A stretch of 64,000 nt of DNA, from contig NC_057716.1 in assembly GCF_004010195.1 (NCBI RefSeq), forward strand, positions 52,689,713-52,753,712. The letters are read 5' to 3'. Position numbers and translations under genes: made by a program. Below the pieces are notes generated by a model, which saw only the letters and a list, made by a program, of their open reading frames with translations, had not been told where the DNA came from and ran no database searches. Shown one piece after another: positions 7,315-62,480 of this stretch. The first letter of the stretch is position 1; the number at the start of each line of letters is the position of its first letter. The DNA comes from Chiloscyllium plagiosum (lineage: Eukaryota).

Positions 7315-7485
7315 AGACAAAATAGTTCAGATGCTGGAAATCTGAATCAAACACAGAATGCTGGAGAAACTCAGCAGATCTGGCAGCATCTGTAGAGAGA
7401 TAAATAGGATAATGTTTTGAGTGTGATATGACTTCTTCAGAACTCTTCTTCAGTGCTGAATTTCTACAGCATTCTCTGTGTTTGT
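7315..7485 (-). mobile_element. Penelope-like terminal repeat remnant (family D), partial hairpin with degenerate hammerhead
   Basis: gctggagaaactcagcag... arm with an inverted tgctgaatttctacagcattct arm; minus strand reads agtt-CTGAAGA at about 7434-7444. Confidence 0.7.
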
Positions 7486-8982
7486 ACAAATACTGTGATT
7501 CTGTATTTTGTTTTATCATGATACCTTAATAGATTGCTGATTTACACACGTCACTGCCAGGTGAGACCGTTCCTGCTTGGTTCTAGACATCTCTGCAAGC
7601 AATTAGCTGAGGTGATGGGATGTTCCTGGGCAGCTTACTAGTATTCTCTCTTGGCTATATGGTTTTGACAGTCTACGTCACAGCAGCACCCTTCTGTATA
7701 ATTGAGGGATTTGAAACTTTGCTGTCATGTTCCCCTACACTGTCTAGAATTCAGTAATTGTCTTGTTACCATTAACATGTTGGGCAAGCCCAGAGTTTAT
7801 TTGTGTGAATTTCGCAGCAGCTTATTTTGGAGGCTCTTAAGCTGAAGGTCTCTACATATCAGCTAGCTAGTGAAATGTAGATTTTTTAACAAAGGATATT
7901 GTTGAGTAGTTGCTACTACAATGTCACTTTGAAAAGAAATCGCAAACATTCGAGTTATGCATTTAGATCATTTTATATAAAAACCTCAGAATATTTCATG
8001 GAGAAAAGCGATACAATAGTCTATCATCATCCATTGGGCTGACCTTGTAACATATTATGAGGGACCAGTATTTAACAGTCAATCAATCGAATTTTGATGT
8101 AGAACATGGTCTCAGTATACACTGGCGCCAGGGATTTTTACCCAATGACTGTGCATATCGGACAGTAATAGTTTTAATTTCCCAAGCTCGCTTCAAGTAA
8201 TCAATTCAGATTTCTGGTTTATGTTAATTCTTGCACAGTGTACCCACCCACACACCAACCACCCACCTTCCATTTGTATTGTTGTAAAGTTTGGCATGTT
8301 AATTTCGCTTAAAAATGATTAGCATTTGCTGGTACAAAATAAATTTTTCCTTTCTGTGGATTCATAGATCTTACCGGATGTGTATTTGGTTATTAAGGTC
8401 AGCAGACTTTCAGTATTATGAAGTTGTTAATGTTTCTTTTTATAATCTGGGCAATGCCGACTGTGGAAGCATTGCACTGTTCTAAAGTACAGCTTGTTTC
8501 ACTGATGCCATGGAGATCTAAACTAAGCTGACACTATCATAGGCTGATTTATAACAAAGATAATTTTATTCATTGGACCATCAATGTTTTGCAATTCAAT
8601 TTTCACTGCGTGATGCATATTTTATAATAAAACTAACAATTCAATTCTGCGGGTTCCACTCTCCACCATCCCTCTTCCACAGCCACCAAACCCCCTTAAC
8701 CCCACCAAGGTTACAGATTGCAGTATTTTGTTTCCAAGCTAATGTCTCCCATCCCTTTATTGATTACAATTGACCTTATACCAACTGAAGCTTAGAGGTC
8801 ACACTGAGCTTGTTTTGGTTTTTTACACTCAAATAGGTTTTCAGGCAACAGCTAAATATGACTCTCTGACAGCTTTATCTCCTGTGATAATGCAGAATCA
8901 ATGAGATAGGCTATCCTTAACATTGCACAGATGGAGCGCGAAAACACTACAAGTCACAACTGCCCTTGTATGTAGTTTTCAT

Positions 8983-10945: not shown

Positions 10946-12107
10946 GACATTGGAGCAAAGATGTCTCAGGGCGAGTGCAGAATGTTCTCACGGGGGAGAG
11001 GGACCAGCAAGAGGTCATTGTCCACATTGGAGCCAACGATATAGGAAGGGAAAAGGTTGAGATTCTGAAGGGAGATTACAGAGAGTTAGGCAGAAATTTA
11101 AAAAGGAGGTCCTCAAGCGGAGTAATATCTGGATTACTCCCGGTGCTACGAGCTAGTGAGGGCAGGAATAGGAGAATAGAGCAGATGAATGCATGGCTGA
11201 GGAGCTGGTGTATGGGAGAAAATTCACATTTCTGGATCATTGGAATCTCTTTTGGTGTAGAAGTGACCTGTACAAGAAGGACAGATGGCACCTAAATTGG
11301 AAGGGGACTAATATATTGGCAGGGAAATTTGCTATAACTGCTTGGGAGGATTTAAACTAGTAAGGTGGGGGAGGTGGGACCCATGGAGATAGTGAGGAAA
11401 GAGATCCATCTGAGACTGGTACGGTTGAGAACAGAAGTGAATTAAACAGTCAGGGCAGGCAGTTACAAGGTAGGACTAATAAATTAAACTGCATTTATTT
11501 CAATGCAAGAGGCCTAACAGGGAAGGCAGATGAACTCAGGGCATAGTTAGGAACATGGGACTGGGATATCATACGAATTACAGGCCACTGTTGGAAAGAT
11601 GTTGTGAAACTTGAAAGTGTTCAGAAAAAATTTACAAGGATGTTTCCAGGGTTGGACGATTTGAGCAACAGGGAGAGGTTGAACAGGCTGGGGCTGTTTT
11701 CCCTGGAGCGTTGGAGGCTGAGGGGTGACCTTATAGAGGTTTACAAAATTATGAGGGGCATGGATAGGATAAATAGGCAAAGTCTTTTCCCTGGGGTCGG
11801 GGAGTCCAGAACTAGAGGGCATAAGTTTAGGGTGAGAGGGGAAAGATATAAAAGAGACCTAAGGGGCAACTTTTTCACGCAGAGGGTGGTACGTGTATGG
11901 AATGAGCTGCCAGGGGATGTGGTGGAGGCTGATACAATTGCAACATTTAAGAGGCATTTGAATCCAAAAATGAATAGGAAGGGTTTGGAGGGATATGGGC
12001 TGGGTGCTGGCAGGTGGGACTAGATTGGGTTGGGATATCTGGTCGGCGTGGACAGGTTGGACCGAAGGGTCTGTTTCCGTGCTGTACATCTCGATGACTC
12101 TATGACT
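10946..12107 (+). mobile_element. Young internally deleted CR1: ORF1 esterase-like half + ORF2 start fused to ORF2 C-terminus
   Basis: ORF 10975-11295 (VIVHIGANDIG...ISGLLPV, SGNH-like CR1 ORF1); KLNCIYFNARGL at about 11480; jump at about 11584 to the open ORF2 C-terminus 11604-12023; gactctatgact tail. Confidence 0.9.
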
Positions 12108-20590: not shown

Positions 20591-20728
20591 CAGCCTTTAT
20601 TCCTGATGAAGGGCTTTTGCCCAAAACATCGATTTTACTGCCCCTCGGATGCTGCCTGACCAGCAGTGCTCTTCCAGCACCACTAATCCAGAATCTGGTT
20701 TCCAGCATCTGCAGTCATTGTTTTTACC
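20591..20728 (+). mobile_element. Short PLE terminal-repeat unit (family A) with hammerhead motif (GAAA decayed to AAAA)
   Basis: attc-CTGATGA-a-gggc-tttt-gccc-aaaac-atc-gatt followed by gatgctgcctgacc...ccagcatctgcag. Confidence 0.85.
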
Positions 20729-20994: not shown

Positions 20995-21233
20995 GGGAAT
21001 CTGGGGAGAAGGTAGCTGAGAGTGCAATAGGCAGATGGAGGAGGGGATGAAGGTGATAGGTTGGAAAGGAGGGTGGAGCAGATAGGTGGGAAGGAAGATT
21101 CAGCGATGCTAACACCTGATGAAGGACGTTTGTCCGAAACATCGATTTTCCTGCTCCTCAAATGCTGCCTGACCGGTTGTGCTTTTCCAGCACCACTCTG
21201 ATTTCCAGCATGTGCAGTCCTCACTTTTGCCTA
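20995..21233. mobile_element. PLE family A remnant: antisense 3' region plus sense terminal repeat
   Basis: 20995-21100 matches 48035-48130 of the long PLE; 21115-21233 is the terminal repeat in opposite orientation. Confidence 0.85.
21112..21147 (+). ncRNA. Minimal hammerhead ribozyme motif with compensatory stem II
   Basis: CTGATGA (21116-21122)-a-ggac-gttt-gtcc-GAAAC-ATC. Confidence 0.65.
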
Positions 21234-32240: not shown

Positions 32241-33091
32241 CTGCAGGCTGCAGCGCGACATAGACAGGATGCAGAGCTGGGCTGAGAAATTGCAGATGGA
32301 GTTTAACCTGGATAAATGCAAAGTGATGCATTTTGGAAGTTCAATCACGAATGCTGAATGTAGGATTAAAGACAGGATTCTTGGCAGCGTGGAGGAACAG
32401 AGGGATCTGGGTGAGCAAGTACATAGATCCCTCAAAGTTGCCACTCAAGTGGATAGAAAGTTGTTAAGAAAGCAAACAGTGTTTTGAATGTTCATTAACA
32501 GGGGTATCAAGTTTAAGAGCCGAGAGGTTTTGCTGCAGCTCTACAAGTCCCTGGTGAGACTACACGAGGAATATTGTGTCCAGTTCTGGTCGCCCTACTA
32601 TAGGAAAGATACAGAGGCTTTGGAGAGGGTGAAAAGAAGGTTTACCAGAATGCTGCCTGGACTGGAGGGCTTGCCTTATGAAGAAAGGTTGAATAAGCTC
32701 AGACTTTTCTCTCTGGAGAGGAGGAAGAGAGGAGACCTGATCGAGGTATACAAGATAATAAGAGTCAATAGCCAGAGACTTTTCCCCAGGGCAGGATTGA
32801 CTGGTACAAGGAGTCATAGTTTGAAGATATTAGGAGGAAGGTATAAAGGAGACGTCAGAGGTAGGTTCGTTACGCAGAGTTGTGAATGCATGGAATGCGT
32901 TGCTCGTTGTGGTGGTGGAAGCAGAGTATTTCGGGGCATTTAAGCAACTGCTGGACACGCACGTGGATAGCAGTGAGTTGAGGGGTGTGTAGGTTAAATT
33001 ATTATATTTTACATTAGGATTAAACCTCGGCACAACATCGTGGGCCAAAGGGCCTGCTCTGTGTTGTACTTTTCTATGTTCTATGTTCTAT

Positions 33092-41604: not shown

Positions 41605-41856
41605 AGATGTGGAGGTGCTGGTGTTGGACTGGGGTGGGCAAAGTCAAAAGTCACATGACACCAGGTTATAATCCAACAGGTTTATTTGAAATCACAACCT
41701 TTTGGTGCTCTGCTCCTTTGTCAGGTGAAGTGGAGGGAAGCACATAGACACCTATAAATTCTGTGCCTGTGTGCTTCCCTCCACTTCACCTGATGATAGA
41801 GCAGTGCTCTGAAAGCTTGTGAATTCAAATAAAACTGCTGGACTTTACCTTGGTGG
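41605..41856. mobile_element. PLE family C inverted-repeat remnant
   Basis: Inverted arms about 41660-41750 and 41762-41856, each carrying a hammerhead-like motif. Confidence 0.85.
41785..41823 (+). ncRNA. Minimal hammerhead ribozyme motif (PLE family C), fully paired
   Basis: ttcac-CTGATGA-t-agagc-agt-gctct-GAAA-GC-TT-gtgaa: 5-bp stem I, 5-bp stem II, AAGCTT palindrome in place of stem III. Confidence 0.75.
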
Positions 41857-42094
41857 CAAAGGGCTTCCACAAAGTGGAACCACTCCCCTTGTGCTTCCCA
41901 TACATAAGTAGGCAGCTATTCACCAAATGTTTGAATTGAAATGCGGTATGGCTCCTTCCATTATATCACTGATCTCTTTTAGTTCTTTCAACTTGAGACT
42001 ACATGCATTTCAGACTTAATTATTATTGAAGAAATTGATGGACTGACTGATGACAAGGTTTTACCTTTAACTGACCTTAATAAGACAAGATTTA

Positions 42095-46718: not shown

Positions 46719-47290
46719 CCTGAACTCTCCTGGAACCATCAACACATACCAATCATGAGGGTGCACCATGACATTTAGCCATCTCAGCAAGCTAGTTTCA
46801 ATAAATAATGATGATACAATGCACACATGAAGAAATTGAAACCATGGAATTTGAATTGTTTAGACGTAAAATTTAAAGTTGAAAAAAAACACAAAATCCA
46901 TGCCACCTTTGTGCTCTCAGTAAGTATTTTGTTAATGGCATTGCTTTTGGGCAGAAAGGACTTTCATTGTGAAGGACAGCTTCCCTATTTTCCCAGGAAG
47001 TTCTTCTATATCCTACCTTTAGATACAGCAGTGTCAGCATGAAGGAGCTTCGCCTGTCGTGGAATTGCATGTGCTTCCCTTGCATGTTGCCATCACTTGA
47101 AATTTTAATTCTGATCACAACCAAAACAGGGAAAAGCAAGAAAATGGAAGTGGTGCATAATTCCAGGTCCTGCCATGGTAATTGGGGCGTCACGGACAAA
47201 ACTCTGCTTTGGACTTATAGTCATAAAGTCAAAGATTAATATAGCATGGAAACAGGTCCTTCGGTCCAAACTGGTCCATGCTGACCATGT

Positions 47291-47383
47291 CAAGATTAGA
47301 GTGGTGCTGGAAATGCACCAGGTCAGGCAGCATCCGAGGAACAGGAAAATCAATGTTTCGAGCATGAGCCCTTCATCAGGAAT
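47291..47383 (-). mobile_element. 93-bp solo PLE/hammerhead unit with 14-bp TSD
   Basis: CATGCTGACCATGT at 47277-47290 and CACGCTGACCATGT at 47384-47397; insert begins att-c-CTGATGA-a-gggc-tcat-gctc-GAAAC-ATT. Confidence 0.9.
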
Positions 47384-47855
47384 CACGCTGACCATGTGCC
47401 CATTCAGCTAGTTCCAATTGCGTGCATTTGGTCCATATCCCTCTAAATCTTTCCTATCCCTCTAAATCTTTCCTGTCCAAATGTTTTTTTTAATGTTGCA
47501 ATTGTACCTTCCTCAACCACTTTCTCTGGAAGCCCATTGCATATATGCAACACTTTCTGTGTGAAGAAGTTGCCCCTCAGGTTCTTCCTAAATTTTTCCC
47601 CTCTTATCTTAAACCTATGCCTTCTAGTTTTCAAATCCCCATCCCTGGGAAAAAGGCTATCTATGCCCCTTATGATTTTATAAACCTCAATAAAATCACC
47701 CCACATTCTCCTACGTTCCAAGCAACAGAGTCCTATCCTGGCCGACCTCTCCTTACTAGTCCTCATAACGTCCTCATAAATCTTCTGTGCACTCTTTCTA
47801 ACTTAACTATGCCTTTCCTATAACAGGCTGATCAAAACTGTACACGATACTCCAA

Positions 47856-49996
47856 GTAGGCGGAAGTGGGTACTGCAGATGCTGGAAATTAGAGTCAAGA
47901 TTAGAGTGGTGCTGGAAAAGCTCAGCAGGTCAGGCAGCATCCGAGGAGCAGGAAAATCGACGTTTTGGGCAAAAGCCCTTAGTCAAGAATAAGGCTGGGA
48001 GCCTCAGGGGTAGAGAGATAAATGGAAGGAGGTGGGGCTGGGGAGAAGATAGCTAATAGGTGGATGGAGGTGGAGGTAACGGTGATAAGTCAGAGAGGAG
48101 GGTGGAGTGGATAGGTGGAAAGGAACATTGACAGGTGGAATAGGTCATGAGGATGGTGCTGAGCTAAAACATTGGAACTGGAGTGAGGTGGGTGGAGGAG
48201 AAATGAGGAAACTGGTGAAGACCACTGATGCCATGGGGTTGAAGGGTCCCAAGGCGGAAAGATGAGGCATTCTTCCTCCGGGCGTTGGGTTGTAAGGGAG
48301 TGGTGATGGACGAGACCCAGGATGTGCATGTCCACGACAGACTATGAGAGGGAGTTGAAATGTTTGGCCACTGGGAGGTGGGGTTGATTGGTGCAGGTGT
48401 CCTGGAGATGTTCTCTGAAACGTTCTGCGAGAAGGCGTCCAGTCTCCCCAATGTAGAGGAGGCTGCATCGGGAGCAACATATATAATAAATGACATGTAT
48501 GGAAGGGCAGGTGAAACTTTGATGGATGTGGAAGGCTCCTTAGGGCCTTGGACGAAGGTGAGGTGGGAGGTGTGGGTGCAGGTTTTGCAATTCCTGTGTT
48601 GGCAGTGGAAGGTGCCAGGAGAGGAGGGTGGGTTGTTGGCGGTGGAGGGGTGTGTGGACCTGACCAGGTAGCCACGGAAGGGACGGTCTTTCCAGAAAGT
48701 GGGTAAGGGTGGTGAGGGAAATATCTCCCGAGTGATGGGGTCCGTTTGTAGCTGGCGGAAATGCCTGCGGATGATGGTGATTGGTAGGGTGGAAGATGAG
48801 GACTAAGGGGATTCTGTTCTTGTTGCAGTTGGAGGGGTGAGGTTCGAGGGCAGAGGTCCGGGACGTGGATGAGATGCGCTGGAGGGCATCTTCAACCACG
48901 TGGGAGAGGAAGTTGTGGTCTTTAAAGAAGGAAGCCATCTGGTGTGTTCTGTGATGGGACTGGTCCTCCTGAGAGCAGATGGGACAAAGGTGGAGGAATT
49001 AGGAATACAGGATAGAATTTGTGCAGGAGGTAAGGTGAGAGGAGGTGTAGTCCAAGTAGCTGTGGGAGTCGGTAGCTTTGTAGAAAATGTCGGTGTTGAG
49101 TTGGTTATCGTTGATGGAGATGGAGAGGTCCAAGAAGGGGAGGAGGTGTCAGAAATGGTCCAGGTGAATTTAAGGTCGGGGTGGAATGTGTTGGTGAAGT
49201 TGATGAACTGTTCAACCTCCTTGTGGGAGCACGAGGTGGCGCTGATGCAGTCATCAATGTAGCGGAGGAAAAGGTGAGGAGTGGTGCCGGTTTAACTTTG
49301 GAAGATGGACTGTTCTACGTAGCCAACAAAGAGACAGGCATAGCTGGGGCCTATTTGGATGCCAATGTCTATCTCTTTCATCTGGAGGAAGTGGGAGGAT
49401 TTGAAGAAGAAATTGTTGAGGGTGAGGACCAATTCAGCATGTCAGTGGAAGGGTACTGGTAGAGACATTGGGAGAGGAAGAAATGGAGGGCTTGGAGGCC
49501 CTGGTCATGATGGATGGAGGTGCAGAGGGACTGGATGTCCATGGTGAAGATGAGGCATTGGGGGCTGGGGAAACGGAAGTCTTGGAGGAGGTGGAGGGCC
49601 CAGTTGGTGTCCCGAAAGTATGTGGGGAGTTCCTGGACGAGGAGGAATAGGACAGTATCGGGTTAAGTGGAGATGAATTCAATGGGGCTGGAGCAGACTG
49701 AGGCAATAGATTGGCCAGGGTAGTCAGATTTGTGGATCTTGGGTAGGAGGTAGAATCGGGCGGTGCAGGTTTCCCGAACTATGAAGTTGGAAGCTGTGGG
49801 TGGGAGATCCCCTGGGGTGATGAGATTTGGTGATGGGGAGGGGGTGAGCTCCTGGTCAAGGGGGCAGTAGAAGAGGTGTCTTCGAGTTGGCACCTGGCCT
49901 CAGCGGTGTAGAGATCAGTGCGCCAAACTACCACTGCACCCCCTTTATCCATTGGTTTGATGGTGAGATTGGGTTTGGAGCAAAGGGAGCAGAAGA
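47856..49996 (-). mobile_element. 5'-truncated Penelope-like retroelement (RT + GIY-YIG endonuclease, frameshifted), family A
   Basis: FYLLPKIHK, LRYIDDCIS (about 49240-49268) and VIYYICCSRCSLLYIGETGR motifs; terminal repeat 47856-47990; ATACTCCAA TSD at 47847-47855 and 49997-50005. Confidence 0.93.
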
Positions 49997-52821
49997 ATAC
50001 TCCAACTTCAGCCTCACCAAGAACTTATACAATTGTAACAATGTCCCAACTCCTGTACTCAATGCCTCAACCGATGAAGGTCAGCATGCTAAATACCTTC
50101 TTCACCACCCTATCTACCTGAGACGTTGCTTTCTACAACATCCTCAGGACCGTACTGTCATACCTTGGTTTGACTTTCCAAAGTGCAACACCTCACACTT
50201 ATTTGTATTGAATTGCATTTGCCAATCATCAGCCCACTCCCCCATCTGATCAAGATCCCGCTTTAATTTTTGATAAACTTCCTCACTATAAACAATACCT
50301 CCTAATTTTGTATCATCCGCAAACTTACTGAACAGGTCTTATACATTTACATCCAGATCATTTATGTAAATAACAAATAACAGACGTCCCAGCACCAAAC
50401 TCTGTCGTATATGAGTAGTCACAGGCCTCCACTGCGAGAAACAACTTTCAATCATCACCCTCCAGGCTTCTTACCATCGAGCCAGTTTTGAATCCAATTA
50501 GCTGGCTTTCCTTGAATACCATGCAACCTAACCGTCATGACTAGCCTGCTGTCCGGGACCTTGTCAAAGGCCTTACTAAACTCCATATAGACAACATCCA
50601 CTGCCCTACCCTCATCTATCCTCTTCGTTACCTCTTCGAAAAATTGTAAAAGATTTGTCAGACATGACGGCCCGCGCACAAATCTACGCTGACTATCCGT
50701 ATTCAAACCTTGACTATCCAAACGTTGATTGATCCTATCCCACAGTAGCCTCTCCAACAACTTGCCTACCACTGGTGTCAGGCTCACTGGCCTGTAGTTC
50801 CCTGGTTTGTCTTTGCTACCTCTCTAAAACAATGGGAACCACATTACCACTCTCTAGTCTTCCACAACTTCACCAGTGGCTAAAGTTGAGGCAGAAATCT
50901 CTGCAAGGGCCTCTGCAATTTCTTCGTTAGCCTCCCACATCATCTGAGGTTGAACTTTATCAGGCCCAGGGTATTTATCCACCTCAATGCACTTTAAGGC
51001 TGCAAACAGCTCCTCTCTGGTAAAATGCATGCAGTCCAAAACATCAACACTTGTTTCCCTTATTTATGCAGCATGCAGCATTCGTGATTCTCTCCTCAGT
51101 AAACTGAGGAGAAATATTCTTTAAAGATCACCCCCAGCTTTTGTAGCTCTATACCTAAATGGACATGCTGATCTTTAATGGGGCCTATTCTTGCCCTAGC
51201 CACCCTTTTACTCTTATTATAGTTATCAAACCTCTTAGGGTTATCTTTAACCTTATCTGCCAGATCCATCTCATACCCTCTTTTTGCTCTTTTGTTTTTC
51301 ATCTTAAGTGTGCTCCTACATTTTTTACAGTCATCAAGGAATTCACTTGAGCCCGATAGCTTAAACCTAATTAATGCCTGCTTCTTTTTCCTGACCAGAG
51401 CCTCAATATCCCTCATCAGCCAGGGATCCCTAAATCTGCCTGCTTTTCCCTTCACCCTAACAGGGACATACTGTCCCTGGACTGTTGACATCACACTTTT
51501 AAAAGTCTGTACTCTTATTTTCCTCTAAAAATAACAATATATCTTTCAGATAACACGAATAATATTTGTGAAACACTTCCATAGCTTTTATCATCAGTCA
51601 TGACAACTTCCTTGAATATAACTAATTAGGTAGCACAAATCCTGAAAATCATCGTTTTGACAGCACCATTTCACCTTGTAAAATGTAATTTGTCTCATTA
51701 ATTTCAAATGCAGACTCATGTTGGGCAAAAAGTAAAAAGAAAATATCTTTGCAGGCATATATTCACAGGCTGAACTTACATTCCCAACCTTAATGCTAAC
51801 CTGGTTAAATTATTAATATGATTGATTGTGGAAGTTCCATACTATCTCGTCCTGAATAGACAGAAGGGCTGAAAATGTAGCAGCACATTTTTCCAAGCTG
51901 TATGTCAGATTATTTTGTAATCTGCAATCTGTTTGTACATAATAAACTTATATGAATTTTAATACATTTAAAAATATTGAAATCACTGTAGTAGCATGAA
52001 ATCAGACACGCTCTATGAAAATTTACAATCAGCAACATTGTCAAAAATGGGCAGGACCTTCTTTACCAATATTAAAATATGTAGATATTTACAGATTTTT
52101 ATTTTTTATTAGAGTTGCATTAATCATTTGTAATTAAATCCCAGGAAAATAAATGAAGTCAATTTTACATCAAATAGAAGTTTTATTTATACAATGCCTT
52201 ATCACAGATGTCCTGAATGCATCATGTACAATGATTTGCTTTGAAGTACAGTCAGTTGCTAGTCAAGCAAAACAAAACAAAATAAAAATATTAATTGATG
52301 TTGGAACATGCTTTCATTCTTCCACTGATTGCAGTCCAATGTCTATCCTATTAGACACATCTTCTTAACTAATGGCTCAAGTCTATGTCATGATGCATTT
52401 TTTTCCAACATGCTGATTGAAGTTAACAGAAACATGTCAAATTTATGAAATGGAAACAGAAACAAATGAACTATGAACCTATTATTAAGCACTGGCATAT
52501 GAATCTAATTACAATGGTGAAGGAGTGGGGGGAAAACAATGCAAGTTTAATATACATTTTCCCAGTTTACAGTTGCACTAATATTTTTAGGAAAATTAAT
52601 AGTTTTTTGTAAAGGGCACAAAATCACTACAATGTTTCAGATAACATTTCAAAATGAAATAATTATGACATTTCAGTTTCTGATTTACAGATTCTGATCA
52701 TTCTAGCTACAAAGATCAGAAGATAACCAAAAAAGGAACTGAAATACTGTGTTAAAATGGCACAGAGTGAGCTGGTCAATAGTTTGAACTACCAGTGTGA
52801 CTTATATTCTACAGTTCTCCA

Positions 52822-54008
52822 CTGGGGAAAAGTTGATGTTTCTTACATGGACTTCAGTCAGGTCTTTGACGAAGTCCCATACAGAAAGCTGATCCAAAAG
52901 GTATCAGCTCATGGGATCCAACACAAGTGGCAAATTGTATCCAAAATGGTCTTCCAAATAAGAGGTAAAGGATGAAGGTGGAGGGTTGTTTTGTAATTGG
53001 AAGCCTGTGACCAGCGGTCTACTACCGGGTTCAATATTGGGACCCTTGCTGTTAATTATGTATTTTAATGACTTGGATGTTAATGTAGAATATATAATTT
53101 GTAAGTTTGCAAAGGACAAGAAAATTGGTGGTGTTGTTGATAGTGAGGAAGATGGTCTCAGGCTACAGTCTGGTATTGATCAGCTGGTAAATTGGGCAGA
53201 TGGAATTTAATTCTGATAAGTGTGAGGTGATGCATTTTGGAAGCTCTAATAAGGAATGCATAATGAATGGTAGGTCCTTGCTATTGAGGAACAAAGAGAT
53301 CTTGGTGTATACGTCCATAGATTCCTGAAGATGTCGACATAATTACAAAAGGTAGTGAAGTTAGCATAGGGGATACTTGCCTTCATTAACTGAGATGTAG
53401 AATATAGGAGCAAAGAGATCTTATTACACCTTTATGAAACACTGGTCGGGTCACAAGTGAAATATAGATGGAAACCAATAATTCTACCATACTATTGAAA
53501 ATATGTGATTGCACTGGAGAGGGTGCAGAGGGGATTCACTAAGATGTTTTCTGGGATGAAAAGACTCAGTTATGAGGCGACACAAGAGTGGTTTGGTTTG
53601 TTTTCCCTGGAGCAGAGGAAGCTGAGGGGTGATCTGATTGAGGTGTACAAAATTATGAGAGGCACAGACAGAGTAAATCATAAGAATCTCTTCCCCATGG
53701 CAGATGTATCTAAGATCAGAACGCATAGATTAAGGCAAAGAGCAAGTGGCTTGGACGAGATCTGATAAAAAATGTTTTTACTTAGAGGATGGTAGAAATA
53801 CAAAATGTACTGCCTGAGATAGTGGTTGAGGCAGATACTCTCACCAACATTTTGAAGCAACTGGATGAGCACTTAAAATGGTGGGTTATGGTAGACTATG
53901 AACCAAATGCCTGTTAATAGTATTAGTGAAGTTTGGTGTTTGCTGGTTGGTGTAGACATGGTGGGCCCAAAAAGCCCTTTTTCTATGCTATATGACACTA
54001 TGACACTA
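52822..54008 (+). mobile_element. CR1 (RT to 3' end), decayed
   Basis: ORFs 52986-53210 (PGSILGPLL...FAKDKKIGG) and 53505-53765; tatgacactatgacact tail. Confidence 0.9.
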
Positions 54009-54624
54009 AAACTAAATCAACTAAGTTAAGATGTCATTCAGCAGACATGGACTGGAAACAACAACTTAGATGTAAATCTGTGCCAGATCAGTGGGTGGAA
54101 TTTTAAAAAGAGGCAGAACTTGATCAGGCCAGCACCAGAGATCTTCAAAATTAATGGGCAGGGCATGATTCTGGATCCTTGCTGACATTCCTGTTTCCAG
54201 AAATCAATTCAAGCACAGGATAAAGATAGAATAGATAGAAGTTAGAAAGCCTATGTGCAGCACTCCTACTACTGCCATCTCCCCTGACTATCTTATCTTC
54301 TCATAAAGTTCTCAACATGAGCAGTCAACGTCCCTTTGTGAAAGTCCTTAATCAATTTCACATCTTTTAGTCATGTTCAAATAAACACACAGACATTGAA
54401 AAAATAACTTCAATGAAAGATTATGTCATTACAAGGTAATAAAATTTACATTCAAGCAAAACTTTTTGAAGAAACCCTTACTGACCTAGTCCAGGAGTCA
54501 TTCTTGAATTTTAGTCAAAGCATTCATCATGCGTTAATCTGGAAAATAAACTGATATCTGACCACAGCTTGGACATTCTTTTGTTGATACAGTTGCCATT
54601 TGGGATTTTCAATACTTCTTATTG

Positions 54625-55200
54625 ACTAGTTAGTTGGGCTCAACTGTGGGAAATTGAGTTCAATCCAGAGAAGAGTGAGGAAATGCATTTGAGAAAGGCT
54701 AACAAGATAAGGGAACACAATAAATGGTAAAAACATTGAGAACTGTTGAGGATAGAATGGAGGGAATGGAGGGAATGTCCACAGATCACAAAAGATGGCT
54801 GGAACAGGCAACTGGACATGTCAAGAAGTTGCAATAGTTCTTGCCATTATTAGACGATGCATGCAACATAGCAACAGAAAGTTTACTCTGCAAAAGTATA
54901 AAAGCTGGAGTGTTGCATGTAGTTCTGATCATTGCATTATAGGAAATATTTGACAGCCCTTGAGAAAGTGTACAGGAGGTTTCAAAGGACTTTTACAATT
55001 TTAGTTTTAAGGAAATATTGGGCAGCTAGGATTGGTGTTTTGGAGCACAGAAAGCTGACGGAGGAATCTAAATGAAGTGTATTAGGTTCTTTGGGGCCAA
55101 GGTAGAGAGAATAGAAAGGTTGGTTAATAAGGTACAAAGTTACTTACTCTGTTCACAAAGGCCTCAAACTGGCGAAGAAAGTTTTTTTTCTGCAGAAACT
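54625..55200 (+). mobile_element. Old CR1 fragment
   Basis: gagttcaatccagagaagagtgaggaaatgcattt (FNPEKSEEMH) and downstream C-terminal remnants. Confidence 0.7.
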
Positions 55201-55349
55201 GAAGGGAGTAGAAAAGTCCTAAAGTTACAAGTTTACAGATTTAATTGAATCAAATAAATTAAACCATAAAGAAGATATTTATCTCCAGTGAAAGATGCCA
55301 ACTAATTAAATAACCCAGATTTAATGGAAACAGAATGCCTTTGCAGTTA

Positions 55350-55491
55350 AATTTTTAGTTTTTAAAACTTAACTTGCTTTTCTAGTCAAACTGTTCAGAG
55401 ATGTTATTACACATTTCTGGAGCAGGTGGGATTTGAACCTGGTGTTCCCAGTCCAGAGGGACGTTACCACTGCATGACAAGAGGGCCCCAT
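55350..55491 (-). mobile_element. Short tRNA-derived SINE with 16-bp TSD
   Basis: A-box-like tgcagtggtaa, B-box ggttcaaatccc, A-rich tail; AATGCCTTT(G/A)CAGTTA at 55334-55349 and 55492-55507. Confidence 0.8.
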
Positions 55492-56811
55492 AATGCCTTT
55501 ACAGTTAGTTTAATCCTCCAATAACCTTCACCTTGCAACTCAATGCCAGGGTCATTGACTCAACTAGTCAAGGTAGGAGGTAGTGATATCTTATGACAAT
55601 AAATGTTTACAGCCATCTTGTGCGACTGTGATGAATACTGTCTAAGGATCAGCAGAAGTGTGTACCATGTATATTATTCTTGCCTCCTTCCTTCTCTTGA
55701 AAGTCGACTCCACATGAAAGGAAGCAATAATAGCCTGAAAATGATCTACTGTTGCTCCTTTATTGGACTTATTATCTGGAATGATTCTTGACACCTGGTT
55801 GCACATCATATGGAGTCAAGCAGAGAGTCTTCATCCTACGTATCTGTCTCTTAAAAGGAGAAAATAATCCAAAATCAACACTAGACATAAAGGGCCCTGC
55901 AACATTTTTCCCTAATGATACAACAATTTACTTGCATATTCTCTATCTTCGATATTGCATCCACTGTCTATGGTGAGGTTTGCGAAATGAAATGTAAATG
56001 AAGAGACCACTTTACTGAATACCTTTGTTTCTTCACAAATGCAACTTCAGTTCCTTATCACTTGCTATATCAAATTCCCTTTCCACTTGCACTCCAGCCT
56101 CTTTATCCTTTCCTTCTACACTATTACAATAAAGCTCAAAAAAACCTCAGGAAACAATGCCCTGGAGGAAAGTTAGTCCATGCCAGAAAATTAAACAAGC
56201 TCATAATTAATTGGCAGTCTATGTTTAATAGTGCTTGGTCTTTCTACACTGAAGTTTACAGAACAGTCTAAACTCTTTATTGTTTTTTATGACTCTTTTT
56301 GATCTTACTGTCACTTTTACTTTTGTAACCCCTAGCCACTGATTTGGTCAATTCCATCCTCACCTCCATCTTTTATGTCTTTCTCTCCAATTAAACCAAT
56401 ACTTTCTTTCATTCTTGCCATTGCCCTATCGGCACTTATCTTTACTTCTTTATATCCACAGAGCACAGATTTGAAAGGACAGACGTATGGTTTAGCAATA
56501 CAACACCACAGCTGGCTTGAGCAGATAAAACACTATTAGGACGTCCTTTCATCTGCAAGAATTGCTCACTATTCCAGAATCATTCACAATTAATGCAAAA
56601 TTAATCTGTGAATTAATTTCTCTAATGCAGACATTGTTTTTTTAAGCCCTTCTCCCTGTTTCCACAACATTCACTTCCAACATGTGCACGGATTGGTCTG
56701 TCACAAAATTCCCACCATTCAATCTGCTGCCTCTGCTGTGTCCTGCCCTTCTACTATCTTACCAAGCCAGACCTCCACATAAAGCATCCTAAAGCCCATT
56801 ATCCCATTCAT

Positions 56812-57355
56812 GACAATGGTCCCAGGAATAAAACGCTTAACATATGAGGAACATTTGCTGACAATGGAGTTTGAAAGGATGACGGGGGATCTAATTGAAA
56901 CTTACAAAATACTGAATGACCTGGACAGAGTGGATGTTGGGAAGATGTTTCTATTGGTAAGAGAGACTAGGACCTGAGGACACAGCCTTAGAGTAAAGAG
57001 AAGCCTTTTAAAACAGAGATAAGAAGAAACTTCTTCAGCCAGAGAGTGATGAATCTATGGAATTCACTACCACAGAAGGCTGTGGAGGTCAGATCATTGA
57101 GTATATTTAAGACTGAGAGAGATAGGCTCTTGAGTGTCAAGGGGATCAAGGGTTACAGCGAGAAAGCAGGAGAATGGGGTTGAGAAACTTAGTTGGATTG
57201 CTGATGAAGGGCTTATGCCAGAAACATCGATTCTCCTGCTCCACGGATGCTGCCTGACCTGCTGCACTTTTCCAGCAACACATTTTCAGCTGAGAAACTT
57301 ATCAGACATGATTGAATGGGCTGAATGGCCTAACTTCTGCTCCTATGTCTTATAG
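56812..57355 (+). mobile_element. CR1 3' portion (same subfamily as 4876-5649)
   Basis: High similarity to 5180-5650; ctcctatgtcttat tail. Confidence 0.9.
57192..57290 (+). mobile_element. 99-bp solo PLE/hammerhead unit with 11-bp TSD
   Basis: TGAGAAACTTA at 57181-57191 and 57291-57301; 5-nt filler gttgg, then att-g-CTGATGA-a-gggc-ttat-gcca-GAAAC-ATC. Confidence 0.9.
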
Positions 57356-57379
57356 TGCCTTAGCCCTGAACTTGCACCT

Positions 57380-58112
57380 TTTTATTTGCTCATTGGATGG
57401 GCATGTTGCTGGCTAGGTCAGCATTTATTGCTCTTCCCTTCTTGCCATTGAAATAGAGTCATAGAGATGTATAGCATAGAAACAGACCCTCCGGTCCAAC
57501 TCTTCCATCCCGACCAGATATCCTAACCTAATCTAGTCCCATTTGTCAGCACTTGGCCCATATCTCTCTAAATCCTTCCTATTCATGTACCCATCCAGTT
57601 GCCTTTTAAATGTTGTAATTGTCCCAGCTTCTGCCACTTCCTCTGGTGAACCACCCTCTGCGAGAAAAAGTTGCCCCTTCGGTCCTTTTTAAATCTTTCC
57701 CCTCTCACCCTAAACCTCTGCTCTCTCATTCTGGACTCCCCCACTCCAGAGAAAAGACCTTGTCTATTTAACCTATCCATGTCCCTTATGATTTTACAAA
57801 CCTTTATAAGGTCACCCCTCAGCCTCCGACGCTCCAGGGAAAACAGCCCCAGCCTACTCAGCCTCTCCCTAGAGCTCAACCCTAGTCTTGAGGAAGTGTC
57901 TTTTTGAACTGCTGTGGCCCATTGTAAAGGTATAAACAGACTGCTGTTAAGAAGACAGTTTCAGGATCTTGAACCAAAGACAGTGACAGAACTACGATAT
58001 TGTTCCATGTCTGGATGGTGACTGATTTGGAGGGGACCTCGCAGATTTTGTGTTCCTAAGCATCCACTGAGCATGTCCTTATAGCTGGTTGAGTTCATGG
58101 ATTTAGAAAGTG
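57380..58112 (-). mobile_element. LINE-B 3' end with nested CR1 (57453-57884, minus)
   Basis: LINE-B tail at 57380-57452 resumes at 57885; nested ORF 57583-57879 (LGLFSLERRRLRGDLI). Confidence 0.85.
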
Positions 58113-58314
58113 AGGGAAAACCTATACATGCTACCACACTCCCCTCCCACCCTGTCCTTGTAAACAACCATCCCATCACAAAATTCCCTTTCCCTGCTAA
58201 AGTCCTTGAATGCTTTGTTACCTCCCAAATCAATTCCCATCTTTCCTGGAAATCTAAGTTTGATTTTTTTGGAGGGCACAAAAGATATCCAACATGACCA
58301 TAATGTCCAGATGG

Positions 58315-59375
58315 TGTGTAGAAAGAATTTAAAAAAAATATGATATTCTCTTGTTTTTTTTTTTAAATGGGCACTTTGTTGGACTAACAATGTGAATACC
58401 ATTGATCACATGATGCCAGTTGACCAGAACTTCTGCTAAGTTCCAATCAGCAGTGACTAGAGCACAAAAGCTTATCCTATCCTGCTTGAATGTTGCACAT
58501 TACACTGTACAGACAATCCAGACAAACCTACACAAAATATCAGTCTGCAAAATGTCTCCCTCAGACAGACTGAAACAAAGGAAACCATTGAAGCTTACAA
58601 TGAATGAGATGACACTCATGGTCACTGCAAGTATCTTCTAAAGAATGCAATGCTTTTTGATGATTCATCAAAACCATCCCATTACCTGAGTGCCTGAACT
58701 AGGAGCCTTACCCAATGACTGAAACTGCTGGTTTGTTTGAAAAGCTTTTAATGACATAGTGCTAACTTTTATTTATAATCTGCTTTTTACATTGTTACAG
58801 TCCACAACAAAGCAGCTCTGGCTTCACTTCAGTCTACTTCGAGTATCGTCCTCTATACAGGAAAATCCAACTTTGGTAGAGAAGCGAACTAATTTCTGAG
58901 TCTACTAGGATTATATTGCTGTGCTTTCAATTACAGTCACCTGCATTCAAGCTCCCATTAGAGGAAATTCTGCCAGACTTGTCAACTGAAAGACTTAATT
59001 GGACTTTGATTTATTGGACTCCTATTCACATGAATTAATGATCATATTTTTGATTTTAAGTAATTCATAATTGCAACTTCTTTTCCTTTTGTGCTTTCTT
59101 TCTTTCTTGAATGCTTGTGAGTATGACTATTTGTTCCAAACTCTTCCCTTGGGTCTTGAATGCATCAATAAATCCTACTTTTTTTTATAACCCAAAATAT
59201 TTTGTTGTGGGTCCATTATAACTTGGATTTCACAAGCAGGGCTTGGGAATTAACAGCATTGCCTACTTTTAAAAAGGAAAAGAATTAAGAACAAATTACA
59301 AACCACCTCTTAGTAGTCAGAAAAAGATTAAAATATTAAAATAACTCAATTTACCTATCCCTCTTGACTGCAACA
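58315..59375. mobile_element. Possible old LTR-like insertion in L2
   Basis: About 1.06 kb of non-L2 sequence interrupting L2, beginning TGT and ending ACA, with AATAAA at 59167; no convincing TSD. Confidence 0.35.
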
Positions 59376-59671
59376 TTGTTTATGGCTCTTCTACACTTGC
59401 CTGTTGACAGAAATGGTCACATCATTGTCTTCTAATGCCTCTTCATCATCATTCACCTGGACGGGATACTCTTCTCGGTTCCGTCCTTAACTATCTAATT
59501 GTATCCAGAATATCACTTGCGATAGTTTCTCTTCCTGCTCATATACAAATATCTCTTGTGTCCCTGTGAATCTATCTTTGCTTCCTTTAATTTATCATCT
59601 AGATGCAATCCCTTGGTAACACCACTGGGAAGCACAGCAGTGGTTTTCAAAGTACACTGACAACACCTTGC

Positions 59672-59796
59672 CTGTTGACACAAAGATCACATCATTGTCA
59701 TTCCTGATGAAGGGCATTTGCCCAAAACAGCGACTCTCCTGCTCCTCAGATACTGCCTGACCTGCTGTGCTTTCCCAGCACCACAATTTTGGCATG
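59672..59796 (+). mobile_element. Solo PLE/hammerhead unit with locally templated 5' filler and 10-bp TSD
   Basis: AACACCTTGC at 59662-59671 and 59797-59806; filler 59672-59699; attc-CTGATGA at 59700-59710. Confidence 0.85.
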
Positions 59797-60194
59797 AACA
59801 CCTTGCTCTACCTCACCACCATCTCTTTCAACTCCTCCAATGCTGGTATATCATCAGACTGCTTATCCAATAACCATCACTAAATGAACATAAATTGGCT
59901 CCAACTAAACACTGGGGAAGCTGAAGATATTGTTTTCAATTCTCACACCAAACCCTATTCCCTAGCTGCAGACTCCATCACTCTGGGAATATTCTTTGAT
60001 CAAACCAGTCTATTCACAAGGCTGGTATCATATTACACCAGATGAGTTTCTAACCTCATATTTGCACCATTATTAACACTGCCTATTTGGACCCCCATAA
60101 CAGCACACAGTTTTGCATATGTTGCATGTTCATCAGCTGTTGAAGTCTTCAGTTATACATTTGTCACCTCTAGAATTAATTATACCAATACCCT

Positions 60195-60410
60195 TCAATA
60201 AAACAAAGAACTGTGAATGCTGGAAATCTGAAACAAAAATAAATATTACTGGAGAAACTCAGCAGGTCTGGCAACATATGCAGAGAGATAGCAGAATTAA
60301 TGTTTTCAGTTTACTCCTCTGAAGAAGGGTCCCAAAAACATTGACTCTGCTTTCTCTCCACAAATGCTGCCAGACTTGCTGAGTTTCTCCAATAATTTCA
60401 GGTTTTATGT
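60195..60410. mobile_element. PLE family D hairpin remnant
   Basis: Inverted arms (ggagaaactcagcaggtctggca / tgccagacttgctgagtttctcc); right arm starts at CTGAAGA; CAAT(A/G)CCCT at 60186-60194 and 60411-60419. Confidence 0.8.
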
Positions 60411-60627
60411 CAATGCCCTACTGGCTGATCTTCAACATTTGACAATCTCTAAGTTTAACAACTCTGCCCAGACTATGTAACTTGTACCAATCCCATTCAC
60501 CACTCATCACTGAGCTTGTCTACATTGTATCTCAGCCAAGCAGTTTAAAAAATGTTTATTTTTTAATTTAAAAAAAAGTCAATGCTTTAAAACTTCTAAT
60601 CCTGGTTTTTCAAAGCCATTCTCCTTC

Positions 60628-60766
60628 AGTGTTCCTGATTCCTGAAGAAGGGCTTAAGCCCGAAACGTCGATTCTCCTGTTCCTTGGATGCTGCCTGACC
60701 TGCTGCGCTTTTCCAGCAACACATTTTCAGCTCTGATCTCCAGCATCTGCAGTCCTCACTTTCTCC
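60628..60766 (+). mobile_element. Young solo PLE terminal-repeat unit (family A)
   Basis: CpGs intact; CTCCTTC on both flanks; 10-nt filler agtgttcctg before attcctgaaga. Confidence 0.9.
60637..60674 (+). ncRNA. Minimal hammerhead ribozyme motif, core intact
   Basis: gattc-CTGAAGA (60642-60648)-a-gggc-ttaa-gccc-GAAAC-GTC-gattc; canonical GUC cleavage triplet. Confidence 0.75.
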
Positions 60767-60865
60767 TCCTTCTCTGCTATATCCCAAACTTTTGCAATTC
60801 AAATGTAGAAGTCAACTTTTTGTCTGAACCACAAGGAAATAATTGTCTCAGTTGCTGAATTAGTT

Positions 60866-62480
60866 ACAGTCATAGAGCCATAGAGCTGTACAGCATGAAA
60901 GCAGACCCTTCGGTCCAACATATTCGTGCCGATCAGATATCCTGAATTAATCTAGTCCAATTTAGCCCATTTCCCTATAAACGCATCCTATTCATGTACC
61001 CATCCAGATGCCTTTTAAATGTTGCAACTGTATCAGCCTCCACCGCTTTGTCAGCTCATTGCATACATGCACCACCCTCTGTGTGAAAAAGGTGCCCTTC
61101 AGGTCCCTTTTAAATCTTTCCCCTCTCACCCTAAACCTATGCCCTCTAGTTTTAGACTGCACTAGTCAAGGAAAACGCCTTGTCTACTTGCTCTATCCAT
61201 GCCCCTCATGATTTTATAAACTTCTATACGGTTACCCCCTCAGCCTCTGACACTCCAGGGAAAATAGCTCCAGCCTACTTGGCCTCTCCCTATAACTCAA
61301 ACCCTCAAACCCTGGCAATATCCTTGTAAATCTTTTCTGAACCTTTCAAATTTGACAACACCTTACTTTTTGCAGGGAGACCAAAATTGAATGCGGTATT
61401 CCAAACATGGCCTAACCAATGTCTTGTACAGCTCAACATGACCTCCCAACTGGTATACTCAATGCATTGACCAATGAAGGTAAGCATAGCAAATATCTTT
61501 TTAACAACCTGTCTACCTGCGTCTTCATTTTCAACAAACTATGAACCTGCACTCCAAGGTCCCTCTGCTCTGCAGCACTCCCCAGGTCCTTACCAGTGGT
61601 TTATAAGTTCTGCCCTCGGTTTGCCTTACCAAAATGTGACACCTTACATTTATCTAGATTAAACTACATCTGCCACTCCTCAGTCTATCAGCGTATCGGC
61701 CCCATCTGATCGAGATCCTATTCTACTCTGGGGTAACCTTTTTTTCTGTCCACTATACCGACAATGTTTGGTGTCATCTGCAAACTTACTCCCATATCTC
61801 CTATATTCACATTCAAATTATTTATATAAGTGATAAAAGCAATGGACCCAGCACCGATCCTTGCGGCACAGTACTGGTCACAGGCCTCCAGTCCAAGAAG
61901 CAACGTTCCACAACCACTCTCTGTCTCCTATCTTTGATCCATTTTTGTATCCAAGTAGCTAGTTCTCCCTGTATTCCATATGATCTAACCTTGCTAACCA
62001 ATCTACCATGCAGAATCTTGTTGAATGCCTTACTGAAGTCCATACAGACAACTTACACTGCTTTGTCTTCATCAATCCTCTTTGCCACTTCTTCAAAAAA
62101 CTCAATCAAGTTAATGAGACATGATCTCCCATGTACAAAGCCATGTTGACTATCCCTAATCAGCCCTTGCCTTTCCAAATACATGTAAATCCTATCCCTC
62201 AGAATCCCCTCCAACAATCTGCCCACCACTGATGTCAGGCTCACTGGTCTATAGTTTCCTGGCATTTCCTTACCACCTTTCTTAAATAATGGCACCATTT
62301 TAGCCAACTTCCACTCTTTCAGCACCTCACCTGTGGCTATCGATGATGCGAATATCTCAGCAAGGGGCCGAGCAATCACTTCCTAGCTTCCCACAAAGTT
62401 CTATTGTACATCTGATCCAGTTCCAAGGATTTATCTACCTTTTAGTGTTTTAAGTCAACCAGCACTTCCTCTTCTGTAAT
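60866..62480 (-). mobile_element. 5'-truncated CR1 (about 1.6 kb)
   Basis: ORFs 62053-62379 (PGNYRPVSLTSVVG) and 61822-62043 (DFSKAFNK...VPQGSVLGP); ctctatgact tail. Confidence 0.93.

Follow-up and report, generated by a model that had tools for sequence, protein, structure and literature searches.

Penelope-like elements that carry an endonuclease (EN+ PLEs) are described as having a pseudo-long terminal repeat (pseudo-LTR), an optional tail of 30-40 bp and a neighbouring copy that is inverted and truncated at its 5' end (Craig et al. 2021, PMC8557442; Arkhipova et al. 2013, PMC3846280). In these accounts the tail is ascribed to resolution by the endonuclease, and the fold-backs to self-priming. 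In vitro, the protein of Poseidon of Anolis carolinensis uses two internal reverse transcriptase (RT) start sites that bound the tail, and it cuts and extends both strands with ribozyme cleavage being unnecessary (Frangieh et al. 2024, PMC11167929). Here we describe short insertions of such an element in a 64,000-nucleotide stretch of the genome of Chiloscyllium plagiosum (contig NC_057716.1, positions 52,689,713 to 52,753,712; hereafter the window) and in a sample of the same genome. In our view, a Neptune-type Penelope element probably gave rise to these insertions as short copies of its terminal repeat, made by an RT that starts about 90 or about 130 nt into the RNA and runs off its capped 5' end at the first base of helix I of the element's own hammerhead ribozyme. 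The element class, the ribozyme, the tail, the inverted arms and the solo repeats were already known, and what is new is a mechanism inferred from the ends of the copies.

The insertions share much with the published EN+ PLEs, in which the repeat likewise overlaps the 5' region, solo repeats and head-to-head arms occur, a tail of about 36 nt is often present at one end only, and target duplications measure 9-16 bp (PMC8557442, PMC3846280). An optional tail of 30-40 bp, an inverted upstream arm and a target duplication are all found in our sampled copies. Unlike in those accounts, about 80% of the sampled copies here consist of the repeat only, their 5' ends gather at one fixed edge, and the pairing of tailed with untailed arms has been measured (45 of 47 pairs).

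Short pseudo-LTR copies and their 5' edge

Positions within the repeat are numbered from the first C of the CUGANGA ribozyme core, which is 0; thus the A of ATTC is at -4, and cleavage by the ribozyme is predicted between +27 and +28. Labels consisting of L and a number denote sampled or selected loci elsewhere in the genome, and other coordinates are window positions. The short insertions in the window, together with the longer element nearby, are as follows.

47291..47383, minus strand: tailless pseudo-LTR solo running from -4 to about +89, preceded by three extra bases of which the last is G
47280-47290 and 47387-47397: target duplication of the 47291-47383 solo, 11 bp, exact
57197..57290, plus strand: tailless pseudo-LTR solo running from -4 to about +89, preceded by five extra bases of which the last is G
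57181-57191 and 57291-57301: target duplication of the 57197-57290 solo, 11 bp, exact
59698..59796, plus strand: solo pseudo-LTR copy, aligned from -6, tailless, core decayed
59662-59671 and 59797-59806: target duplication of the 59672-59796 insertion, 10 bp, exact
59672..59697, plus strand: junction filler between the left duplication and the solo, resembling DNA about 270 bp upstream (about 59400-59430)
60632..60766, plus strand: tailed solo, with a 5'-end repeat at 60632-60637 (G at -5), then -4 to about +125; tail at about 60731-60766
60638..60674, plus strand: putative minimal type I hammerhead; helix I starts at -4 and the core at 60642, ACGU forms the palindrome, and the predicted cut follows 60669
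47856..49996, minus strand: broken, 5'-truncated Neptune-type Penelope copy with the RT end, zinc (Zn) linker, GIY-YIG region, 3' untranslated region (UTR) and a tailed pseudo-LTR

All four short insertions that the initial annotation had reported are present, with exact flanking repeats of 11, 11, 10 and 7 bp; the last, at 60628-60766, is only 7 bp long and overlaps the element's own end. That annotation had all four start four nucleotides before the core. Against family references this holds for two of them, which begin at -4 (47383 and 57197), and not for the copies at 59672 and 60628, which begin at -6 (59698) and -10 (60632), respectively. The extra bases at 60632-60637 look like a short 5'-end repeat. 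G stands immediately before -4 in three of the four solos. The filler at 59672-59697 appears as if the junction had been patched from neighbouring sequence.

For a genome-wide view of the 5' ends, we sampled 160 stretches of 10 kb at round coordinates of the 3.56-Gb genome, whose repeats are like those known from cartilaginous fishes. Copies were found by anchors on the 3' side of the cut site, which kept the 5' end out of the selection. From 322 anchor matches we dropped 21 at stretch edges, 62 that were too diverged from the references and 13 adjacent to gaps; the 226 copies kept comprise 122 without and 104 with an inverted partner. The density is about 208 copies per Mb, or about 7 x 10^5 genome-wide, extrapolated from the 322 sample matches with arms counted apart.

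Rather than spreading evenly, the 5' breakpoints form a sharp peak at -4/-3, as the initial annotation had predicted. We observed 42 of 226 breaks at these two positions (18 without and 24 with an inverted partner) and 60 in -5..-2 (26 and 34), with none in -30..-14. A simulation with uniform breakpoints placed 7 of 150 calls in -5..-2. The bases C, C, T, C at -8..-5 are kept in 33-39 of 41 long copies, and the same positions look random in 32 solos that break in -7..-2; the edge is therefore no artefact of the reference, an explanation that the simulation and this base comparison together exclude. RNA reads show the same edge: 151 reads from many host transcripts, with unlike flanks, depart from the reference exactly at -4, and fold-back joints end there too. 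Flanking repeats are also far above chance, with scores of at least 10 in 16 of 80 solos (0.4% when shuffled) and in 31 of 47 hairpins (0.2% in mismatched pairs).

Several sites of cutting or processing were considered and rejected as the origin of this edge. Cleavage by the ribozyme at GUC would place 5' ends at +27..+29, where we found 4 of 226 breaks (2 without and 2 with an inverted partner), no more than at neighbouring positions. The main template was thus not ribozyme-cut RNA, and the earlier statement that 5' ends gather at the ribozyme's 5' edge and not at its cut is borne out. A second hammerhead cut, at the CUC before -4, is excluded by reasoning from the pairing rules, which allow neither a helix III nor a helix I loop there. 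A splice acceptor at -4, as in Drosophila virilis, is excluded because no AG occurs there. An endonuclease site at the base of stem I, one of the earlier proposals, does not agree with flanks that are unrelated genomic DNA and duplications that lie outside the element. It is likely that the edge reflects a helix I that begins at the first base of the RNA, and not cutting at that point.

A repeat of the extreme 5' end, 6-7 nt long, stands before the copies at L007, L008, L010, L022, L023 and L027-L029, as well as at window positions 60632-60637, as if the enzyme had realigned at the end of its template in the manner of telomerase. This repeat was found in 0 of 180 short random copies, and it is common among the best matches to a query that selects for it.

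Two 3' ends and the head-to-head pairs

The initial annotation noted that the 3' ends differ. In the genome sample they are not free but bimodal, clustering near +89 and +126. The two ends are moreover distributed in a regular way between the arms of head-to-head insertions: 45 of 47 pairs consist of one tailed and one untailed arm (p ~2e-11), the other two lack a tailed arm, and none has two. A single doubly tailed copy, L275, occurs among the selected loci. Truncation is greater in the tailed arm in 28 pairs and in the untailed arm in 15. Some solos carry a stub of a second arm between the duplication and the element, and solos and hairpins therefore form a continuum. Further insertions of these kinds lie in the window.

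20593..20726, plus strand: tailed copy of another subfamily, aligned from -10; a duplication was looked for and none found
21001..21233, no strand assigned: head-to-head insertion; its forward arm begins at -1, and its inverted arm derives from the 3' UTR region of the element
60217..60391, no strand assigned: head-to-head insertion, older family
7328..7500, no strand assigned: head-to-head insertion, older family; the minus-strand arm starts at the A of helix I (by eye)

The first of these had been described as breaking within about 12 nt of the core; alignment against family references puts its start at -10.

Two internal start sites that bound the tail are what the Poseidon protein uses in vitro. 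The accessible text of that study reports no strand difference in start site and maps no fixed 5' edge (PMC11167929), whereas here each arm of a pair uses a different one of the two sites, and the edge is fixed. The two elements also differ in that the Poseidon open reading frame (ORF) starts inside the ribozyme, and the ORF here after the tail. A second comparison is offered by LINE-1 (L1), in which an extra G likewise occurs at a fixed 5' end, and second priming on the other strand gives an inverted arm with the duplication intact (PMC11702581). The arms of L1, however, copy adjacent, non-overlapping parts of the RNA, whereas here the same 90 nt are found in both arms, neither of which begins at a poly(A) tail.

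The pairing bears directly on the proposal, made for rotifer Penelope in the Discussion of PMC3846280, that fold-backs arise by self-priming on an antisense template; solos would then be reduced products. Rare alleles are shared by the arms of one hairpin in 10 of 59 cases (shuffled mean 1.4, maximum 5), which fits one template, as self-priming would have it, but also one source locus or later conversion. Self-priming does not predict tailed-plus-untailed pairs with both arms ending near -4, nor non-palindromic junctions with filler bases, and in amplified fold-backs (see below) private changes are found in one arm and a variable end in the other. We consider it very unlikely as the general cause.

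The duplications and the edge could also be had from recombination between the direct repeats of full-length insertions, in the manner of solo LTRs, which would yield a start at -4 and retain the duplication; recombination or deletion has been suggested for rotifer solo pseudo-LTRs without duplications. Hairpin arms show the same edge as solos, however, and many solos start inside the repeat or carry inverted-arm stubs between duplication and element. In addition, RNA-read depth over the 5' body of the element is about 1-2% of that over the repeat. Recombination of this kind is the least probable of the explanations that we weighed, to the point that we give it hardly any credence.

Three further observations concern the ends. 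Long-arm head-to-head pairs recur at spacings of 246, 251, 272 and 303 bp, a hint that there are further preferred junctions or that fold-backs have been amplified. L152, L167 and other loci start at about -4 and continue for tens to hundreds of bases into the ORF start, pointing to rarer priming sites deeper in the RNA. The untailed arms of L266, L276 and L291 end at about +69 or +80, where a third, minor zone of starts may lie.

The probable first base of the element RNA

We examined whether the bases around -4 resemble a polymerase II initiator. Two general initiator consensus forms were used for this comparison. A third was the form BBCA+1BW (PMC5287114). In 34-36 of 41 long copies the consensus A falls at -4, and no other position within -70..+95 commonly shows the match. 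In an older family with a different helix I, TCAGTT stands in the same register, as judged by eye.

In L1, inserts that are full-length and capped are marked by an extra G at the 5' end (PMC11702581). Whole-genome exact counts for one young family give, before an exact -4 start, G in 1103 cases, A in 725, T in 188 and the templated C in 6459. The loci classified were the first 30 with G, the first 20 with A that were not listed as symmetric pairs and the first 20 with T; by eye, 38 of the first 100 A rows are symmetric pairs. Solos make up 8 of the 30 G loci, 7 of the 20 A loci and 9 of the 20 T loci. The share of G among non-C solos is 0.55 (0.36-0.70), against 0.26 expected, and G precedes 1 of 28 internal truncations, against 7.9 expected. 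An initiator at the edge together with an extra 5' G is what a capped polymerase II 5' end would show, and both are seen, though the G only weakly among unselected copies. The initiator match and the extra G therefore point to a transcription start at -4, and it is likely that the edge marks the capped 5' end of the element RNA.

A number of observations weigh against this. The initiator match was seen after the edge was known, and it lies in a pyrimidine-rich region. Among unselected copies the G excess is weak (9 of the 22 that break at -4), the G at -5 in hairpins can derive from the other arm, and the G lies outside the duplication in only two of four G-solos with a clear duplication. Terminal transferase activity at any template end could add the same base. 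One run of raw RNA reads showed no pile of molecule starts at -4, in a fragmented polyA library that may not show them. Many copies, moreover, do not end at the edge: 85 of 226 begin at +1 or later in a downstream decay (39 without and 46 with an inverted partner), and 46 of 226, about one in five, read through -4 into the 3' UTR and break at -31 or earlier (42 and 4). The earlier statement that copies keep the whole ribozyme thus applies to 95 of 180 short copies, the other 85 starting at +1 or later. Finally, transcription of D. virilis Penelope starts about 120 nt upstream of helix I, and the coincidence of start and helix I is therefore not universal.

The read-through copies would also suit a template that extends upstream of the edge, with the enzyme stalling or jumping at the base of helix I through RNA structure or a bound protein, and so would the coincidence of the edge with helix I across families of differing sequence. 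A structural stop would be expected at the 3' foot of the helix (about +32), before unwinding, but there is no peak there, and neither the G excess nor the register of the initiator is predicted by a stall. We therefore think a stall improbable. The initial annotation had suggested a fixed RT stop, and this stands only as run-off at the end of the template; the initiator match and the extra G speak instead for a transcription start.

A start of transcription at -4 leads to the following scheme. Polymerase II would start at the A at -4, in the pseudo-LTR before the ORF or at the end of any long copy. Judging from the duplications, the element's protein would nick both target strands about 11-16 bp apart, and, by analogy with the in vitro work on the lizard element, each nick would prime internally on the RNA, at about +89 in one case and about +126 in the other. 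Each cDNA would extend to the 5' end of the RNA, often adding a C opposite the cap, or stop early. Joining of the two cDNAs head to head would give a hairpin; joining of one cDNA to the target, with the other lost or tiny, would give a solo. Copies that start at -4 lack the upstream initiator bases, and most would therefore be dead ends, although a few fold-backs may be transcribed and copied again.

This scheme can be extended, and we offer the extension only tentatively, as a joint reading that we would not expect to hold in full. Every insertion would be twin-primed, with a dimeric enzyme priming the two strands at fixed sites, +89 and +126; two RNAs, joined by way of the ribozyme palindrome, may serve as its templates. 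The mRNA would begin with the first base of its own hammerhead, and cutting would remove the cap. Priming in the leader would produce cDNAs resembling strong-stop products by the hundred thousand, and some fold-backs would become new non-autonomous elements.

A literature search of papers outside subscription found no account of Penelope elements that describes twin priming or a 5' edge fixed at helix I; supplementary figures of PMC11167929 could show genomic 5' ends.

Parent element, ribozyme and fold-back families

The pseudo-LTR of the element at 47856-49996 lies at about 47858-47990, and the element is flanked by a 9-bp duplication (47847-47855 and 49997-50005). The short unit had been equated with this repeat. 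The repeat is 83% identical to the copy at 60638 and its ribozyme core is decayed; it is therefore a relative and not the source. A Pfam search with fragments of the 47856-49996 element gave no match; relatives match RVT_1 (E 8.9e-5) and GIY-YIG (E 0.032), both below the curated cut-offs. The order of domains read from the frames, RT followed by a C-terminal GIY-YIG, is that of an EN+ PLE. A CX2-5CxxC linker between RT and endonuclease, which is the mark of Neptune (PMC8557442), is present in the frame 48164-48802 and in L180, and by this motif the parent element is a Neptune-type Penelope. The repeat continues past +126 into an ORF that starts at about +160 in about two-thirds of 30 loci (by eye), so that the unit serves as 5' leader as well as 3' repeat.

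An Rfam scan of the window gave no hammerhead match. The hammerhead call rests on the pattern and on a published minimal descriptor (PMC4209133), and self-cleavage is a prediction. The descriptor fits 85 of 141 core-spanning copies, 61 of them with ACGU, and three of the four window solos; CUGANGA, helix II, GAAA, a palindromic stub, NUH and a short helix I, as expected for the minimal type I, are all found. As in the minimal hammerheads of metazoan Penelope elements (Cervera and de la Pena 2014, PMC4209133), helix I has 4-5 bp, an unpaired base precedes helix II and the helix III stub is palindromic, and the motifs occur mostly as dispersed single copies, with some opposite-strand pairs. That study proposed a cut, circularised RNA as template, whereas the short copies here come from uncut RNA. 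An older family (L069:4825-4860, L070, L225) has a U3-A8 core in place of C3-G8, a variant reported in Schistosoma, and a self-complementary helix I of 4 bp. A hairpin at 41727-41870 has CUGAUGA-GAAA spacing with a different sequence, possibly from another ribozyme-bearing family. Elsewhere in the window, the frames 11547-12023, 32488-32943 and 61658-62149 encode what we take to be RT fragments of the CR1 type of long interspersed element (LINE).

The young families A1, A2 and A2b each have one majority sequence that is common to long copies, solos and arms (groups of 1-23 copies), except for one position in the A2 solos and one in a single A2b arm. Because the majority sequence of each family is that of its long copies, the solos are mostly by-products. 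Solos are nonetheless slightly nearer to short copies than to long ones (0.052 vs 0.064, n=77, p=3e-6), which runs counter to this; uneven sampling of families or secondary sources may account for it.

Such secondary sources do exist. Five of the 20 T-class loci (L288, L290, L291, L296, L302) have a composite fold-back junction and private changes in common, and another junction and a private change unite four of the 20 A-class loci (L275, L277, L278, L282), in both cases at unrelated flanks and with most loci having duplications of their own. In both groups the private changes are in the tailed arm only, and the other arm ends variably, as would be expected if second priming took place anew each time. 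A few fold-back copies have thus been amplified as secondary sources, forming small non-autonomous families. In the set of four A-class loci, one arm lost its ribozyme via a jump between two CCTGA words.

These groups, the small nearness of solos to short copies and a 327-bp internally deleted tandem unit at L154 would also be expected of a separate, minimal ribozyme-bounded element resembling a retrozyme or a short interspersed element (SINE), with masters of its own, that makes most of the short insertions in trans, and retrozymes derived from pseudo-LTRs have been published (bioRxiv 10.64898/2026.07.22.740005). Against such an element, each tagged family includes long, solo and arm copies whose majority sequences match, the two single positions aside, and the solos are not tandem, their ribozyme was uncut and their edge is common to hairpin arms. 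We judge it unlikely as the source of most copies. The trans-mobilised unit of the initial annotation accordingly survives for a minority, the fold-backs that have spread as secondary sources.

The published non-LTR retrozymes are, like the copies described here, non-coding, hammerhead-bearing and derived from Penelope pseudo-LTRs. They are tandem units with a ribozyme in each, whereas the window copies are monomers or head-to-head pairs and so do not have the form of a retrozyme. The unit at L154:1369-1696 (repeat, ORF start and 3' UTR end) does have that shape.

Penelope-like elements are the sister group of telomerase; their mode of integration is poorly understood, and the tail and inverted arms have been on record for years with no tested cause. 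At about 208 copies per Mb, the short copies form a large part of the repeat landscape of this genome. They would constitute an in vivo record, with exact coordinates, of a predicted RNA start, of two priming sites used one per strand, and of uncut ribozyme RNA as the template.

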